The notes under the pieces are model-generated. The model had not been told where the DNA came from. It worked only from the letters and a program-made list of their open reading frames with translations, and ran no database searches. A DNA stretch of 64,000 bases, taken from Escherichia coli (GTDB lineage Bacteria; Pseudomonadota; Gammaproteobacteria; Enterobacterales; Enterobacteriaceae). A program made the position numbers and the translations under genes. The DNA is taken from the NCBI RefSeq assembly GCF_016026235.1, contig NZ_CP065613.1. One strand, given 5' to 3'. Shown here piece after piece: positions 1 to 56,554 of this stretch (positions are counted from its first letter, which is position 1; the number at the start of each line of letters is the position of its first letter).

Positions 1-394
1 GAGGCATGATAAGCACTCCAGTCAATGAGTATCACAACACGAGACATTCCCCGCGTAATCTTTTGGGTAATTCGCTGAAAAATGGTGGAAACCTCATTTT
101 GCAAATGTCGATTCCCCAACAGTCGATCCACCCGCTTTATTTTGTTTTTAACTGATGCCGTACCGGTTAAATGACGCCCGATACTGGTAAGTGTGAGGGA
201 AGCGCCATTTATTACAGCATTAGTTGCGTCAATCAGTGATTTTTGACGGTAAAGATGCAAAGGGGCCAGTATGTTGTTAAGGAAATTTTGGCATAATGAA
301 CGTGCAGGCATAGTGGTGATCTCCTTGAAATTGTTAGCACAATCAATTAGATCACATCTCACTATGCCTGTCTTGTTTTCTGGGGATTCCTCAG
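1..394 (-). mobile_element. Partial copy (left end, first 394 bp) of an IS4-family IS10-like insertion sequence, running off the window start
   Basis: Bases 1-394 are the exact reverse complement of 35604-35997. Terminal inverted repeat TTTTCTGGGGATTCCTCAG at 376-394. Transposase start codon would be at 309-311 on the minus strand (partial CDS 1..311). Confidence 0.85.
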
Positions 395-10386: not shown

Positions 10387-13275
<2,889 letters not shown>

Positions 13276-14334
13276 ATGGTATTCAGAATAGCTAGCTCCC
13301 CTTATACCCATAACCAGCGCCAGACATCGCGCATTATGCTGTTGGTGTTGCTCGCAGCCGTGCCAGGAATCGCAGCGCAACTGTGGGTTTTTGGTTGGGG
13401 TACTCTCGTTCAGATCCTGTTGGCATCGGTTAGTGCTCTGTTAGCCGAAGCTCTCGTACTCAAACTACGCAAACAGTCGGTAGCCGCCACGTTGAAAGAT
13501 AACTCAGCATTGCTGACAGGCTTATTGCTGGCGGTAAGTATTCCCCCCCTCGCGCCATGGTGGATGGTCGTGCTGGGTACGGTGTTTGCGGTGATTATCG
13601 CTAAACAGTTGTATGGCGGTCTGGGACAAAACCCGTTTAATCCGGCAATGATTGGTTATGTGGTCTTACTGATCTCCTTCCCGGTGCAGATGACCAGCTG
13701 GTTACCGCCACATGAAATTGCGGTCAACATCCCTGGTTTTATCGACGCCATACAGGTTATTTTCAGCGGGCATACCGCCAGTGGTGGTGATATGAACACA
13801 CTACGCTTAGGTATTGATGGCATTAGTCAGGCGACACCGCTGGATACATTTAAAACCTCTGTCCGTGCCGGTCATTCGGTTGAACAGATTATGCAATATC
13901 CGATCTACAGCGGTATTCTGGCGGGCGCTGGTTGGCAATGGGTAAATCTCGCCTGGCTGGCTGGCGGCGTATGGTTGCTATGGCAGAAAGCGATTCGCTG
14001 GCATATTCCCCTCGGCTTCTTAGTAACGCTGGCGTTATGCGCAACGTTGGGCTGGTTGTTCTCACCAGAAACACTGGCAGCACCGCAAATTCATCTGCTG
14101 TCTGGAGCGACCATGCTCGGCGCATTCTTTATTTTGACTGACCCGGTTACCGCTTCTACGACCAATCGTGGTCGTCTTATTTTCGGCGCGCTGGCGGGCT
14201 TATTGGTCTGGTTGATCCGCAGTTTCGGCGGCTATCCTGACGGCGTGGCTTTTGCCGTCCTGCTGGCGAACATCACGGTTCCTCTGATCGATTACTACAC
14301 GCGTCCGCGCGTCTACGGCCATCGCAAAGGGTAA
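13276..14334 (+). CDS. rsxD: Rsx/Rnf complex subunit D
   Basis: 352 aa integral membrane protein; start abuts rsxC stop. Confidence 0.95.
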
Positions 14335-19123: not shown

Positions 19124-19147
19124 CGGCCCACAGATCGTTGTGGGCCG
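19124..19147. terminator. Stem-loop between convergent gstA and pdxY (likely bidirectional terminator)
   Basis: Inverted repeat CGGCCCACA-N6-TGTGGGCCG. Confidence 0.5.
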
Positions 19148-50300: not shown

Positions 50301-51556
50301 TACGCAGGCTGGAGCGTTGCGCCAATCCCGTCTTCGTCTGGCTGTAGTTTCAGTGCGTTACACAGAGTTTGCCGACTGGCATCTGTTATCTCAACGTGTA
50401 TATCACCGGTAACTTCCCCTTTCACATTGATGAAGTCAGGTGAGATTTCTTTCGCACTGGTTTGCAGGCAAATCGCTCCCTCTCCGCGCAGGCGTTTCAC
50501 TTTCAGTTGCACATACGTTGCCGCACCAGTGATCAGCCACAGTTTTCCGCCATTCAGATTGATGTTACCAACAACAAAAGTGACACCGTCACCTTTTACC
50601 GTACTGCCGTCGAGAATCAACACACCGCCCTGCTGTACAGTAATCGTTGATTGTTGCAGATCTGCGCCATAGCCAATAATCATTGAAGCGCCGTCCAGTA
50701 ATGCAACACTCCCGGTCAGTTCAACCGGTGCGCGATCTTCCTCTACGACAAAATTTTCGTCCGCGCTGGTGGGTGACAACAGGATCACTGTTCCACCTTG
50801 TATTACCGCATTTTCCAGCGTACCGGCATGCACTTCAGCCCGACCACCCACATTCACGGACAGGTTTTGCGTCTTACCGGAACTGTAGAGCTGAAGGCCA
50901 TCCGTCCCCAGACGATAAATGGATCCATTCTCAACAATAGTGTCAGAGTCTTCACCACCGAGATTATTCATGGTGCCACCAGCAAGCAACGTATCACTGG
51001 CTTTCCCGGCCAGCATAAAAACGCCGCCCTGATTAATCTCACAATTGCTGGCTTCCCCACCTGGATACACCAACAATTCACCACCTTCATCTACCACGAC
51101 CGCTGAGGTTGTCCCATTAACCAACAGGCCGCCCTCTTGATCGAGAATGATTTTTCCCGCGCGATGTCCTTCCAGTACACGCAGGTTACCGCCATTTTCC
51201 AGCAACAAACCGCAGGCATAACCCTGATCAACGCTGAATTCACCTTCGGGATGGCGGCCATTAACCGTAGCGAGCGTAGAGAGACTAATTGCGCCTCCCT
51301 CGGACTGAACAATATCTGTGGCAATGGCACCGTCGCTGACCGATAGCGTGCCATTGTTACCGTACTGTGTGCATTTGGCGATCCCACCGGTTGCCACTTT
51401 CAACCAGCCAGCCCCCGTGACCACGGTATTTTCGGCTCTTCCGCCAGCTTCAACAATCAACTCGCCTTCAGTAAGTTGCGTCGCGCCAATGACCTCGCCG
51501 GTCTTAACAATTTGCACATTCCCGTCGTTCATCAAGTTTTTCGCATCAGATCCCAT
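50300..51556 (-). CDS. ydhQ: Autotransporter-passenger-like (pertactin/AIDA-type beta-helix repeat) protein
   Basis: 418 aa; Gly/Asn-rich beta-helical repeats; no obvious C-terminal beta-barrel translocator. Confidence 0.85.
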   Translation of the reverse strand: MGSDAKNLMNDGNVQIVKTGEVIGATQLTEGELIVEAGGRAENTVVTGAGWLKVATGGIAKCTQYGNNGTLSVSDGAIATDIVQSEGGAISLSTLATVNGRHPEGEFSVDQGYACGLLLENGGNLRVLEGHRAGKIILDQEGGLLVNGTTSAVVVDEGGELLVYPGGEASNCEINQGGVFMLAGKASDTLLAGGTMNNLGGEDSDTIVENGSIYRLGTDGLQLYSSGKTQNLSVNVGGRAEVHAGTLENAVIQGGTVILLSPTSADENFVVEEDRAPVELTGSVALLDGASMIIGYGADLQQSTITVQQGGVLILDGSTVKGDGVTFVVGNINLNGGKLWLITGAATYVQLKVKRLRGEGAICLQTSAKEISPDFINVKGEVTGDIHVEITDASRQTLCNALKLQPDEDGIGATLQPA

Positions 51557-51863
51557 GATTTATTCCTTTGCTGCATCTGTGTGCCTTTATTGCTACCTAA
51601 GTGTAAAGGCTACGGAGGATTTATCCACGACAGATTTGAGATGGTGGCAAACAACTCTGTTTAAACTCTGATACACGAATTATTGGGTTGTATCAGATGT
51701 AAATGCGATCCTGAATAAAAATCGCCCTTGCAAATCAACAAAATATAGCCAATTTGCTTAAAAGCTCTGCAAACGGTCGAAATAGCGCAGAAAATTACGT
51801 TTTGCCTCTTGCCACCTTCCCACTCTGCCGCTAATATTCGTCCCCGTTGTCACCTACAACGTT

Positions 51864-51940
51864 GCGTTCATAGCTCAGTTGGTTAGAGCACCACCTTGAC
51901 ATGGTGGGGGTCGTTGGTTCGAGTCCAATTGAACGCACCA
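51864..51940 (+). tRNA. valV: tRNA-Val (anticodon GAC)
   Basis: 77 nt; acceptor stem GCGTTCA/TGAACGC, anticodon loop TTGACAT, T-loop GGTTCGAGTCC, encoded CCA. Confidence 0.95.
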
Positions 51941-51944
51941 TCCT

Positions 51945-52021
51945 GCGTCCGTAGCTCAGTTGGTTAGAGCACCACCTTGACATGGTGGGGGTCGGTGGTT
52001 CGAGTCCACTCGGACGCACCA
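51945..52021 (+). tRNA. valW: tRNA-Val (anticodon GAC)
   Basis: 77 nt; near-identical to valV with compensatory changes in the acceptor and T stems; 4 bp after valV; encoded CCA. Confidence 0.95.
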
Positions 52022-52128
52022 GATTTTCTTAATCTGGTCTTCTCCTTTTTCCCTCTGTTTCTTCTCTGTATCCAATACGTTAAAAGATTTACACTGTCTT
52101 CGTATGCGTTATCAGAAGGAGAATCGCT

Positions 52129-52434
52129 ATGGCAACTTTGTTACAACTTCATTTTGCTTTTAATGGCCCATTTGGCGACGCAATGGCTGAGCAGCTTAAA
52201 CCGCTTGCTGAGTCGATTAATCAGGAACCTGGTTTTCTGTGGAAGGTATGGACAGAAAGTGAAAAGAACCACGAAGCCGGTGGGATCTATCTTTTTACTG
52301 ATGAAAAAAGCGCCCTTGCCTATCTGGAAAAACATACTGCCCGACTTAAAAATCTCGGCGTTGAGGAAGTTGTCGCCAAAGTTTTCGATGTCAATGAGCC
52401 ACTGAGTCAAATCAATCAGGCAAAACTCGCCTGA
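52129..52434 (+). CDS. ydhR: Putative monooxygenase-like small protein (YdhR family)
   Basis: 101 aa. Confidence 0.85.
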
Positions 52435-52559
52435 CAGAATTTAATCAAGGGCGGTTAGCGCCCTTTTCATCCCTGTCTGAAATTTCTCAAATTCTAAAAA
52501 TCTCAACCAAACTTATCTGATAACACTAAATTCGAAAGAATGCGTACAGGTAAGTAACA

Positions 52560-53771
52560 ATGAAAAAAATTGCTATTGTGGGTGCCGGGCCTACGGGGAT
52601 CTACACCTTATTCTCGCTTCTACAGCAACAAACTCCACTTTCTATTTCTATCTTCGAGCAGGCTGACGAGGCCGGTGTCGGGATGCCATACAGTGATGAG
52701 GAAAACTCAAAAATGATGCTGGCAAATATTGCCAGTATTGAAATACCGCCGATTAATTGTACGTATCTCGAATGGCTACAAAAGCAAGAAGCCAGCCATC
52801 TCCAGCGTTATGGCGTTAAAAAAGAAACCTTGCACGATCGTCAGTTTTTACCGCGAATTCTGCTGGGCGAATATTTCCGCGATCAATTTTTACGATTAGT
52901 AGACCAGGCACGACAGCAAAAATTTGCAGTGGCTGTTTATGAATCATGCCAGGTTACCGATCTGCAAATTACAAATGCTGGCGTCATGCTCGCTACAAAT
53001 CAGGATTTACCCAGCGAGACGTTTGATTTAGCGGTGATTGCCACGGGTCACGTCTGGCCTGATGAAGAAGAAGCAACCAGAACGTATTTTCCCAGTCCGT
53101 GGTCAGGCCTGATGGAAGCAAAGGTCGATGCGTGTAACGTGGGTATTATGGGAACATCCTTGAGCGGACTGGATGCGGCAATGGCAGTGGCTATTCAGCA
53201 TGGTTCGTTCATTGAAGATGATAAACAACACGTCGTTTTTAACCGCGATAACGCAAGTGAAAAGCTAAATATTACGTTGATGTCGCGCACGGGTATTTTA
53301 CCCGAAGCCGATTTCTATTGCCCTATTCCCTACGAGCCCTTACACATCGTCACCGATCAGGCATTAAATGCTGAGATTCAAAAAGGTGAAGAGGGCCTTT
53401 TGGATCGGGTATTTAGATTGATAGTAGAGGAAATCAAGTTTGCTGATCCAGACTGGAGCCAACGCATAGCCTTAGAGAGCCTGAATGTCGATTCCTTTGC
53501 TCAAGCTTGGTTTGCCGAGCGCAAACAACGCGACCCATTTGACTGGGCAGAAAAAAATCTCCAGGAAGTCGAACGCAATAAACGAGAAAAACATACTGTT
53601 CCCTGGCGTTATGTCATTCTGCGCCTGCATGAAGCCGTACAGGAAATTGTTCCACATCTGAATGAACACGACCATAAACGGTTCAGTAAAGGCCTTGCCC
53701 GGGTTTTTATCGATAATTATGCGGCAATCCCTTCAGAGTCTATTCGTCGGCTGCTGGCCTTACGTGAAGCG
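52560..53771 (+). pseudogene. ydhS: ydhS (FAD/NAD(P)-binding protein), 5' portion (codons 1-404) truncated by IS1
   Basis: N-terminal GxGxxG dinucleotide-binding motif (IAIVGAGPTG); frame runs into IS1; joins in frame with 54549-54941 to give 534 aa. Confidence 0.9.
53763..53771. repeat. IS1 target-site duplication (left) CGTGAAGCG
   Basis: Identical 9-mer at 54540-54548. Confidence 0.9.
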
Positions 53772-53786
53772 GGTAATGACTCCAAC

Positions 53787-54290
53787 TTACTGATAGTGTT
53801 TTATGTTCAGATAATGCCCGATGACCTTGTCATGCAGCTCCACCGATTTTGAGAACGACAGTGACTTCCGTCCCAGCCTTGCCAGATGTTGTCTCAGATT
53901 CAGATTATGTCGCTCAATGCGCTGAGTGTAACGCTTGCTGATAACGTGCAGCTTTCCCTTCAGGCGTGATTCATACAGCGGCCAGCCATCCGTCATCCAT
54001 ACCACGACCTCAAAGGCCGACAGCAGGCTCAGAAGACGCTCCAGTGTGGCCAGAGTGCGTTCACCGAAGACGTGCGCCACAACCGTCCTCCGTATCCTGT
54101 CATACGCGTAAAACAGCCAGCGCTGACGTGATTTAGCACCGACGTAGCCCCACTGTTCGTCCATTTCAGCGCAGACAATCACATCACTGCCCGGTTGTAT
54201 GCGCGAGGTTACCGACTGCGGCCTGAGTTTTTTAAGTGACGTAAAACCGTGTTGAGGCCAACGCCCATAATGCGTGCACTGGCGCGACAT
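53787..54290 (-). CDS. insB: IS1 InsB (expressed as InsAB' transposase by -1 frameshift)
   Basis: 167-aa ORF recognised as IS1 InsB. Confidence 0.9.
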
Positions 54291-54484
54291 CCGACGCCAT
54301 TCATGGCCATATCAATGATTTTCTGGTGCGTACCGGGCTGAGAGGCGGTGTAAGTGAACTGTAGTTGCCATGTTTTACGGCAATGAGAGCAGAGATAGCG
54401 CTGATGTCCGGCAGTGCTTTTGCCGTTACGCACCACGCCTTCAGTAGCGGAGCAGGAAGGACATCTGATGGAAATGGAAGCCAC
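54209..54484 (-). CDS. insA: IS1 InsA (transposition inhibitor/regulator)
   Basis: 91-aa ORF recognised as IS1 InsA (zinc-finger CPSCSA...CSHC). Confidence 0.9.
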
Positions 54485-54539
54485 GCAAGCACCTTAAAAT
54501 CACCATCATACACTAAATCAGTAAGTTGGCAGCATTACC

Positions 54540-54548
54540 CGTGAAGCG
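54540..54548. repeat. IS1 target-site duplication (right) CGTGAAGCG
   Basis: Direct repeat of 53763-53771. Confidence 0.9.
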
Positions 54549-54941
54549 GGGATCATTCATATTCTCGCCCTCGGTGAAGACTACGAAATGGAAATTAATG
54601 AGTCGCGCACCGTCCTGAAAACGGAAGACAACAGCTACTCGTTTGACGTTTTTATTGATGCCCGCGGACAGCGTCCGCTTAAAGTGAAAGATATTCCTTT
54701 CCCTGGGCTACGCGAGCAATTACAGAAAACAGGGGATGAAATCCCTGATGTTGGCGAAGATTATACGTTACAGCAACCCGAAGATATTCGTGGACGCGTA
54801 GCGTTCGGCGCGTTGCCCTGGTTGATGCACGACCAGCCTTTCGTTCAGGGACTTACGGCATGTGCAGAAATTGGTGAGGCGATGGCCCGAGCGGTCGTAA
54901 AACCTGCATCCCGTGCACGTCGGCGTCTTTCGTTTGATTAA
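54549..54941 (+). pseudogene. ydhS: ydhS 3' portion (last 130 codons)
   Basis: In-frame continuation of ydhS after IS1. Confidence 0.85.
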
Positions 54942-54952
54942 AGGTAAAGCTA

Positions 54953-55765
54953 TCAGCACTCAACAAACTGATGCTGTTCATTAAGACGATAGCGGACTCC
55001 GGCTCGAATATTGTTTTCACCTTCAATGGCGACGGCGAAGCGAACTCTTTCGCCGTCATGATATGCCAGTGCGGCGCTTCCCCCTGGCCCGAGAATAATT
55101 GAGTCGACCACGCCCGTGCTCACTACCGTTGAATTTTCACCGCTGGCAATGATGTGTACATTGTCGCCGCTGTTGGCAATTCTGGCGTTTGCGCCAAAGC
55201 TGGCGATTTGCGCCAGGTCACCATTACTGGCGACATGACACCGTTCACCCAATGTACAAACGCGTACTCGCATTCCGGTGTTCGCAATCCGACTACTATC
55301 TCCAGCGCTGCTTATCCGCGAAGAATTACCGGTTACAGCAACCCGTGCGCGTTCACCGGAGCTGCCAATGTGACTGTTAAAGCCGACACTTCCAATCCGC
55401 ACGCTATAACCCATACTGGCAATTTGCGCGGCATACCCAGCGGTTGCGATTCGGGCGTTATCCTCACAACAGCCGATGCGAGCATGATCGTCGCTGCGGG
55501 CAAACTGACTGCAAAATGGTATCTCTCCGTGGTCTGTGGCCAGTTTTTGCATAGAGGAAACTTCCTGATGCGCGAAGTTTTCATCCGCCAGCCATTTTTT
55601 CCACGCATACTCAACCAGACTCTCCGCCCAGTCCGTATATCCTTCCTCAATCAGTGCATGATGAATATCGGCATAACTACCGCCGCGTGGGAAATGGCGC
55701 AGGAACCAGCGATACATCACCGCTCCGATACGCCATTCTCGCAGGTCTGCTCGTGTAATGATCAT
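54953..55765 (-). CDS. ydhT: FhmA/YdhT-family protein of the ydhYVWXUT operon
   Basis: 270 aa; last gene of the operon. Confidence 0.85.
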   Translation of the reverse strand: MIITRADLREWRIGAVMYRWFLRHFPRGGSYADIHHALIEEGYTDWAESLVEYAWKKWLADENFAHQEVSSMQKLATDHGEIPFCSQFARSDDHARIGCCEDNARIATAGYAAQIASMGYSVRIGSVGFNSHIGSSGERARVAVTGNSSRISSAGDSSRIANTGMRVRVCTLGERCHVASNGDLAQIASFGANARIANSGDNVHIIASGENSTVVSTGVVDSIILGPGGSAALAYHDGERVRFAVAIEGENNIRAGVRYRLNEQHQFVEC

Positions 55766-55768
55766 TCG

Positions 55769-56554
55769 TTAGTGCCGGTGATAGCCATCGACCATGCTTT
55801 TAAAGGTTTCGTGTGGCGTACGCCCCGTGGTGCAAAGATAAAGATGACCGAAGATAAAAAAGAGGCTTATAAATGCCAGAGCAAAATGCGCCTGCAATAA
55901 CCAGTATCTTACGCCAGGAAACACATCTCCCACGGCTTGCGGATAGAGACACAACAGCCCCGTCAATAGTAACAACGGCAGCAATCCATACATGACACCA
56001 ACATAGGCGACCTGCTGTAAGGGATTAAATTTAGACTGGCTTGTTGCCGGGAAAGGATGTTCTTCCCCCTGCATAATGCCAAACAAATAAAATCGCGTTT
56101 GTTTTGCCGCTCGTTCCAGCCACCCCTGACGACGAATGCGATAGTGGTGACCATTATCCCCAACGGCATTGATCAGCACAAAGCCGAGCCAGCATGCCAG
56201 TAACAAAAATCCGCAAACTTCATGCACCGCAACCAGACTTTTAACCGCAGTTGCGCCCACCAGCGCAAAGTGATTTATCAGCCCACTTGCCAGCAACAAT
56301 ACAAAGAGTAACGCATTCGACCAGTGCCATAATCTGACCGCTTTGCTGTAAAGATAAATCTTCTCACCATGATCGGTGGCTGATTTCTTCACGCCACGAG
56401 CACGAAGCAAGGCGTGCAGCCCCAGCACCAACCACATCCCAACCAGCAATACTCCGGCAATGATCAACCACACCGGCCAAAATTCGGGAGTGAACTGTGG
56501 CACATAGTTCGCTAACTGGCTCTGAAACTGTTCAGCATGTTGCGACGGGTTCAT
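55769..56554 (-). CDS. ydhU: PhsC/NrfD-like membrane-anchor (cytochrome b type) subunit
   Basis: 261 aa polytopic membrane protein. Confidence 0.85.
   Translation of the reverse strand: MNPSQHAEQFQSQLANYVPQFTPEFWPVWLIIAGVLLVGMWLVLGLHALLRARGVKKSATDHGEKIYLYSKAVRLWHWSNALLFVLLLASGLINHFALVGATAVKSLVAVHEVCGFLLLACWLGFVLINAVGDNGHHYRIRRQGWLERAAKQTRFYLFGIMQGEEHPFPATSQSKFNPLQQVAYVGVMYGLLPLLLLTGLLCLYPQAVGDVFPGVRYWLLQAHFALAFISLFFIFGHLYLCTTGRTPHETFKSMVDGYHRH

Follow-up and report, generated by a model that had tools for sequence, protein, structure and literature searches.

An IS1F-type IS1 insertion interrupts ydhS beside the convergent ydhYVWXUT operon in Escherichia coli

Two IS1 forms of Escherichia coli K-12 are the closest described relatives of the element reported here. 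IS1F of strain MG1655 (NC_000913.3, positions 4518472–4519239), the 'type IV' IS1, differs from IS1A at 73 positions and showed no detectable transposition in K-12, while the target duplication of IS1 measures 8–9 bp (PMC12428005). A count of 73 positions was also obtained when K-12 IS1F and IS1A were compared here, in agreement with the published figure. The second form, IS1A/IS1E, represents the K-12 IS1 'consensus' and is close to IS1R. With regard to the target gene, a blaCTX-M-15 unit is integrated within ydhS in a sublineage of ST131 (PMC9334617); a search of the literature for a link between ydhS and IS1 found none. The element analysed here lies inside ydhS, in a stretch of E. coli DNA of 64,000 nucleotides (the window, to which coordinates refer unless another record is named). 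An earlier note had described it, from the sequence, as a canonical IS1 that disrupts ydhS by simple insertion beside the convergent ydhYVWXUT operon, and this overall reading is supported on all points.

The element is a complete IS1 of the IS1F isoform, exactly 768 bp long (53772–54539), with its transposase genes on the minus strand, its left terminal repeat (IRL) ending at 54539 and its right terminal repeat (IRR) at 53772. On the plus strand it starts with GGTAATGACTCC and ends with GGCAGCATTACC, which are the right and left terminal repeats. IRL (54517–54539, minus strand) reads GGTAATGCTGCCAACTTACTGAT, with an A at position 4 instead of the G of IS1A, and IRR (53772–53794, plus strand) reads GGTAATGACTCCAACTTACTGAT; the two share 20 of 23 positions. 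These are features of the IS1 family, the members of which are about 768 bp long and bounded by imperfect inverted repeats, each about 23 bp in length and starting with GGT. Abutting both ends is a perfect 9-bp target-site duplication, CGTGAAGCG, within the 8–9 bp of the family; its left copy (53763–53771, plus strand) corresponds to ydhS codons 402–404 and its right copy is located at 54540–54548 (plus strand). In a repeat search the duplication reads as 11 bp (CGTGAAGCGGG), with the IS starting in GG and the right flank also going on with GG. It is taken as 9 bp, not 11, because of the canonical GGT...ACC ends of the element and the single-copy empty site in relatives. By chance, a specified 9-mer would recur right next to the element with a probability of 4^-9 = 3.8e-6; CGTGAAGCG occurs five times in the 64-kb window, which contains only this one IS1 copy. 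The length, the ends and the duplication given in the earlier note are thus confirmed, and re-inspection for the flanking 9-bp repeat and the terminal repeats, the absence of which it had named as grounds for refutation, finds both. An Rfam scan of positions 51000–56500 gave no match within the IS or ydhS. Elsewhere in this region there is a full-length match to RF02194, 'HPnc0260 bacterial antisense RNA', at 51983–52145 on the minus strand (112 bits, gathering score 59); the opposite strand carries the 3' portion of valW (tRNA-Val) and the sequence preceding ydhR.

On the conceptual level the copy has the two-frame organization of the IS1 family, with a 91-residue insA, an AAAAAAC motif at nucleotide 307 and a fusion product of 232 residues. 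The insA gene (54209–54484, minus strand) has a GTG start and its product, the predicted repressor, contains a zinc ribbon and a helix-turn-helix (Pfam PF03811 and PF12759). A promoter-like site, CTGCCA-16-TATGAT, picked up by a consensus scan inside IRL (54532–54505, minus strand), would read into insA. The A6C motif of the programmed -1 frameshift is found at 54227–54233 (minus strand; IS positions 307–313), and both motif and context are the same in IS1A and IS1F. The InsAB' reading frames together span 53787–54484 (minus strand), and the conceptual -1 product runs through without a premature stop. This product scores 245 bits against the NCBIfam equivalog NF033558, transpos_IS1 (cutoff 100), and matches the Pfam families Zn_ribbon_InsA, HTH_Tnp_IS1 and DDE_Tnp_IS1 (PF03811, PF12759 and PF03400), the last over its full length (1–131 of 131).

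When compared with the K-12 copies, the window IS1 is identical to IS1F at 763 of 768 positions (99.3%) and to IS1A at 700 of 768, that is, it is nearly identical to the former and diverges by about 10% from the latter. Copies from other genomes annotated as IS1B-type, generic IS1 or IS1X2-type are 91.0–96.2% identical to it. The typing, which the earlier note had proposed to do against the known IS1 isoforms, thus assigns the element as IS1F-like on the basis of IS1A and IS1F of K-12 and of copies annotated as IS1B-type and IS1X2-type; of the other named isoforms (IS1SD, IS1N, IS1X1-4), the comparison covered one copy annotated as IS1X2-type, at 96.2%. IS1F of K-12 and the window copy have the same length of 768 bp, the same first 30 nucleotides at both ends, an insA of equal length and the same A6C frameshift site, and they are separated by five substitutions. 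At nucleotide 542, the TGG codon of the window copy is replaced by TAG in K-12 IS1F, so that the K-12 InsAB' is cut at 162 residues and insB7 is annotated as a pseudogene; in addition, the K-12 InsA differs by two changes (H34P and T52K), and the K-12 element is inserted near fecI, the window copy inside ydhS. IS1A/IS1E shares the family, the length, the gene layout, the frameshift motif and the 8–9 bp duplication with the window copy. However, IS1A differs from it at 68 nucleotides (91.1% identity) and at 14 of 232 InsAB' residues, its left end starts with GGTGATG, and its own ends match at 18 of 23 positions, compared with 20 of 23 in the window copy. One terminal repeat had been singled out as a variant. 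The difference itself is real, the left end being GGTAATGCTGCC and that of IS1A GGTGATGCTGCC, but it is not peculiar to this copy: GGTAATGCTGCC is also found at the left end of K-12 IS1F, so the supposed variant is the standard end of this isoform.

Among the complete E. coli genomes, 3,926 records contain a copy at least 99% identical to the window IS1, and copies with 100% identity are present at various loci in many of them. The IS1F-type isoform is common and, by inference from these identical copies, recently mobile; the intact features of the window copy, together with its identical counterparts at other loci elsewhere, suggest that the isoform has been active in recent times. As a more speculative point, the immobility of IS1F in K-12 may be due only to the nonsense mutation, with the isoform probably active in wild strains.

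The insertion splits ydhS after codon 404, in phase 0, with the IS genes antiparallel to ydhS. The 5' part (codons 1–404) continues into the element for 26 IS codons, forming a truncated fusion reading frame of 430 residues on the plus strand (52560–53852, with the stop codon at 53850–53852), while the 3' part (codons 405–534 and the stop codon; 54549–54941, plus strand) is separated from its promoter and start codon. When 52560–53771 is joined to 54549–54941, an open frame of 534 codons results. The translation of the joined sequence scores 1117.7 bits against NCBIfam NF007381 (FAD-NAD(P)-binding protein, equivalog; PRK09897; cutoff 783), aligning over 1–534 of 535, which confirms the point of interruption and the in-frame rejoining to 534 residues that had been reported before. 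It also contains a Pfam NAD_binding_9 domain at residues 5–164 and is identical to K-12 YdhS at 529 of 534 residues. Only the rejoined sequence qualifies as a member of the YdhS family, as the interrupted gene is without residues 405–534. A search for homologues of YdhS of solved structure gave only weak matches (E of about 0.1), to the N-terminal dinucleotide-binding motif. Since no start codon remains for the last 130 residues, ydhS::IS1 is almost certainly a null allele, and the truncated YdhS, which lacks these 130 conserved carboxy-terminal residues, is presumably inactive. This oxidoreductase gene is non-essential and evidently dispensable, because independent IS1 insertions are present in the 042 lineage, 5CRE51 and CUPS04, as is the blaCTX-M-15 integration in ST131.

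A comparison with related genomes, as the earlier note had recommended, reveals relatives in which ydhS is uninterrupted and the site empty. Among complete genomes, that of E. coli FDAARGOS_943 is the nearest, at about 19 substitutions in 38 kb. Its uninterrupted ydhS is identical to the rejoined gene at 1604 of 1605 nucleotides, without any amino-acid difference. An empty site with a single CGTGAAGCG is present in FDAARGOS_943, EC2341, 042 and 5CRE51. The rejoined sequence equals the empty site of the relatives base for base, and the flanking sequence runs collinear with that of K-12, EC2341 and FDAARGOS_943. A search of 5,426 complete E. coli genomes found none with exactly this insertion, and the 430-residue reading frame that spans the junction is found in three NCBI assemblies (GCA_900449985.1, GCA_001907395.1 and GCA_002467115.1). 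In the first of these, the 7.3 kb retrieved from the 4.56-Mb contig UGFA01000002.1 show no difference from the window. Because three assemblies carry the insertion, and FDAARGOS_943 and the 5,426 complete genomes are without it, the insertion is both real and recent, and its distribution is limited to a narrow lineage. As a separate observation, the two halves of ydhS are 99.8% identical to ydhS of PK8568, NCTC8623 and several WCHEC and AR isolates, while the surrounding 17 kb are about 99.4% identical to most genomes, NCTC8623 included, and 99.9% identical to FDAARGOS_943, a contrast that hints at a mosaic, recombined history of the region.

Other IS1 insertions in the neighbourhood of ydhS were searched for in both IS orientations in the 5,426 complete genomes, and the same-orientation matches were inspected individually. 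An IS1 of the same orientation is located within or near ydhS in nine genomes, six of them from the 042 lineage, and the search counted four genomes with an IS1 of the opposite orientation in or near the gene. In the 042 lineage the element follows ydhS nucleotide 1371, with target duplication TCCCTGGGC; in 5CRE51 it follows nucleotide 366, with an 8-bp duplication; and in CUPS04 it lies within codons 46–48 (about nucleotides 136–144, as placed by its GAAAACTC duplication), with 150 nucleotides annotated as the 5' fragment. Outside ydhS, in strains unrelated to one another and with IS1 copies of several isoforms, an IS1 is located upstream of the gene in 2017-19-1CC (L010 3001–3768), inside ydhU (phsC) in PSS-08-2 (L012 4205–4972) and between ydhY and fumD in EC2341 (L006 21210–21977). 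Each of these insertions in the ydhR-ydhS-ydhTUXWVY region of other strains has its own duplication of 8–9 bp, and the interrupted ydhS is called a pseudogene by PGAP. They differ from the window insertion in site and in isoform, the elements being 91–96% identical to the window copy and having GGTGATG left ends. Inside ydhS, there are roughly 9–10 genome-level occurrences of IS1 compared with about 19 expected by chance, as calculated from 59,352 chromosomal IS1 places, a gene of 1.6 kb and a genome of about 5 Mb. The idea that IS1 favours ydhS as a hotspot, or that the gene is convergently inactivated, was rejected: the count is at or below the uniform-chance expectation, and the positions are scattered, none coinciding with the window site.

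The genes ydhQ, valV, valW, ydhR, ydhS, ydhT, ydhU, ydhX, ydhW, ydhV and ydhY are in the K-12 order, with ydhY, V, W, X, U and T all full length and on the minus strand. Convergent ydhS and ydhT end with their stop codons 11 bp apart, and the ydhT stop codon begins 413 bp past the right end of the IS, in keeping with the few hundred base pairs to the 3' end of the operon that had been estimated. Positions 19135–64000 are collinear with K-12 1,715,001–1,757,786 bar two IS insertions; with the upstream genes back to uidR also in K-12 order, collinearity, apart from the same two insertions, extends over 396–64000. A crude scan of open reading frames had hinted at truncated hdhA, rsxE and dtpA, as in a Shigella-like, pseudogene-rich decay. 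This was rejected when tblastn of 60 K-12 proteins found 57 of them at full length; of the other three, lhr and ydhS are split and uidA lies outside the window. In rsxC (10957–13275), a tandem array of 96-nucleotide (32-residue) repeats is located at 12517–13284 on the plus strand, and RsxC has 772 residues compared with 740 in K-12, the equivalent of one extra repeat unit.

The split in lhr, a helicase gene, is caused by a 1,294-bp IS4-family element (35604–36897, plus strand), 99.9% identical to 'ISEc60 family' copies. Its termini read CTGAGGAATCCCC...GGGGATCCCTCAG, and its target duplication, GGGCGCACTC, measures 10 bp. A single base sets it apart from the intact copy in EIEC CFSAN029787: an A-to-T change at 36401 turns AGA into TGA and cuts the 396-residue transposase at residue 238. 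Of the 5,426 complete E. coli genomes, just 14 contain this element at full length; in FDAARGOS_943 it has 38 places, and lhr is intact. A second copy (1–394, minus strand), inverted with respect to the one in lhr and cut by the start of the window, is 100% identical over 394 bp. It is located about 98 bp past the end of uidR, at the position of the K-12 uidR-uidA intergenic region, and may disrupt the promoter region of the beta-glucuronidase gene. The 35 kb between the two inverted copies are not inverted with respect to K-12.

Three other explanations of the locus were weighed. IS1 is strongly polar on transcription, and the element could end ydhS transcription about 400 bp early, remove the convergent overlap with ydhT and alter ydhYVWXUT expression, the allele being kept by selection. 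The small distance between the two stop codons is consistent with this, and ydhS-ydhT is one of the 165 convergent 'excludons' of MG1655, these being overlapping transcripts in at least 50% of 58 MG1655 transcriptomes (PMC12288877). Against selection, the insertion is limited to a narrow lineage of three assemblies and the closest complete genome is without it, and the other IS1 copies in or near ydhS are scattered in position and orientation and present at about the chance rate, without any sign of convergent selection. The explanation as a whole is therefore considered unlikely, and we give the same small probability to the IS1 acting as a transcription block that uncouples the ydhS/ydhT excludon, by which expression of the anaerobic oxidoreductase operon ydhYVWXUT would be changed in this lineage.

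An assembly artefact, in which a multicopy IS1 has been misplaced in ydhS, is far less probable still, to the point of being hardly credible. IS1 is indeed a multicopy element in E. coli, at a median of 11 places per genome, and two of the three junction-carrying assemblies are drafts with contigs breaking inside the IS. However, a perfect 9-bp duplication at the precise ends of the IS is the signature of true transposition, not of repeat collapse, the left junction was obtained independently in three assemblies, and both junctions are contained within one 4.56-Mb contig. Just as improbable is that the IS1 marks a rearrangement junction, left by IS1-IS1 recombination or by an adjacent deletion or inversion: the genome has several IS copies, including the two inverted ISEc60-like copies in the same window, but the flanks are the two halves of one gene, in the same orientation and phase and with matching 9-bp duplication and nothing missing, and the intact duplication and the collinearity with K-12 over 396–64000, bar two IS, refute it.

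We are highly confident, then, that the locus arose when an intact IS1F-type element recently transposed, by simple insertion, into the ydhS coding sequence. Following established IS1 biology, InsAB' would be made through a -1 ribosomal frameshift at A6C between insA and insB', with InsA acting as a repressor. InsAB' would bind both terminal repeats of about 23 bp and join the element to a target cut with a 9-bp stagger, repair of which would give rise to the CGTGAAGCG duplication. The allele ydhS::IS1 is lineage-specific and most likely has little or no selective effect.

Knockout of a non-essential gene by IS1 is an ordinary, well-understood kind of mutation. For annotation, ydhS in this genome is a pseudogene disrupted by IS1, and IS1F-like is the proper type for the element, which is no aberrant IS1. 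Carried by three public assemblies but by no genome among the 5,426 complete ones searched, the insertion can be used as a lineage marker. If the uncoupling of ydhS and ydhT were true, ydhS::IS1 would offer a natural setting in which to examine excludon-type regulation. For the IS1 family, the immobility of IS1F inferred from the K-12 copy need not hold for wild strains.
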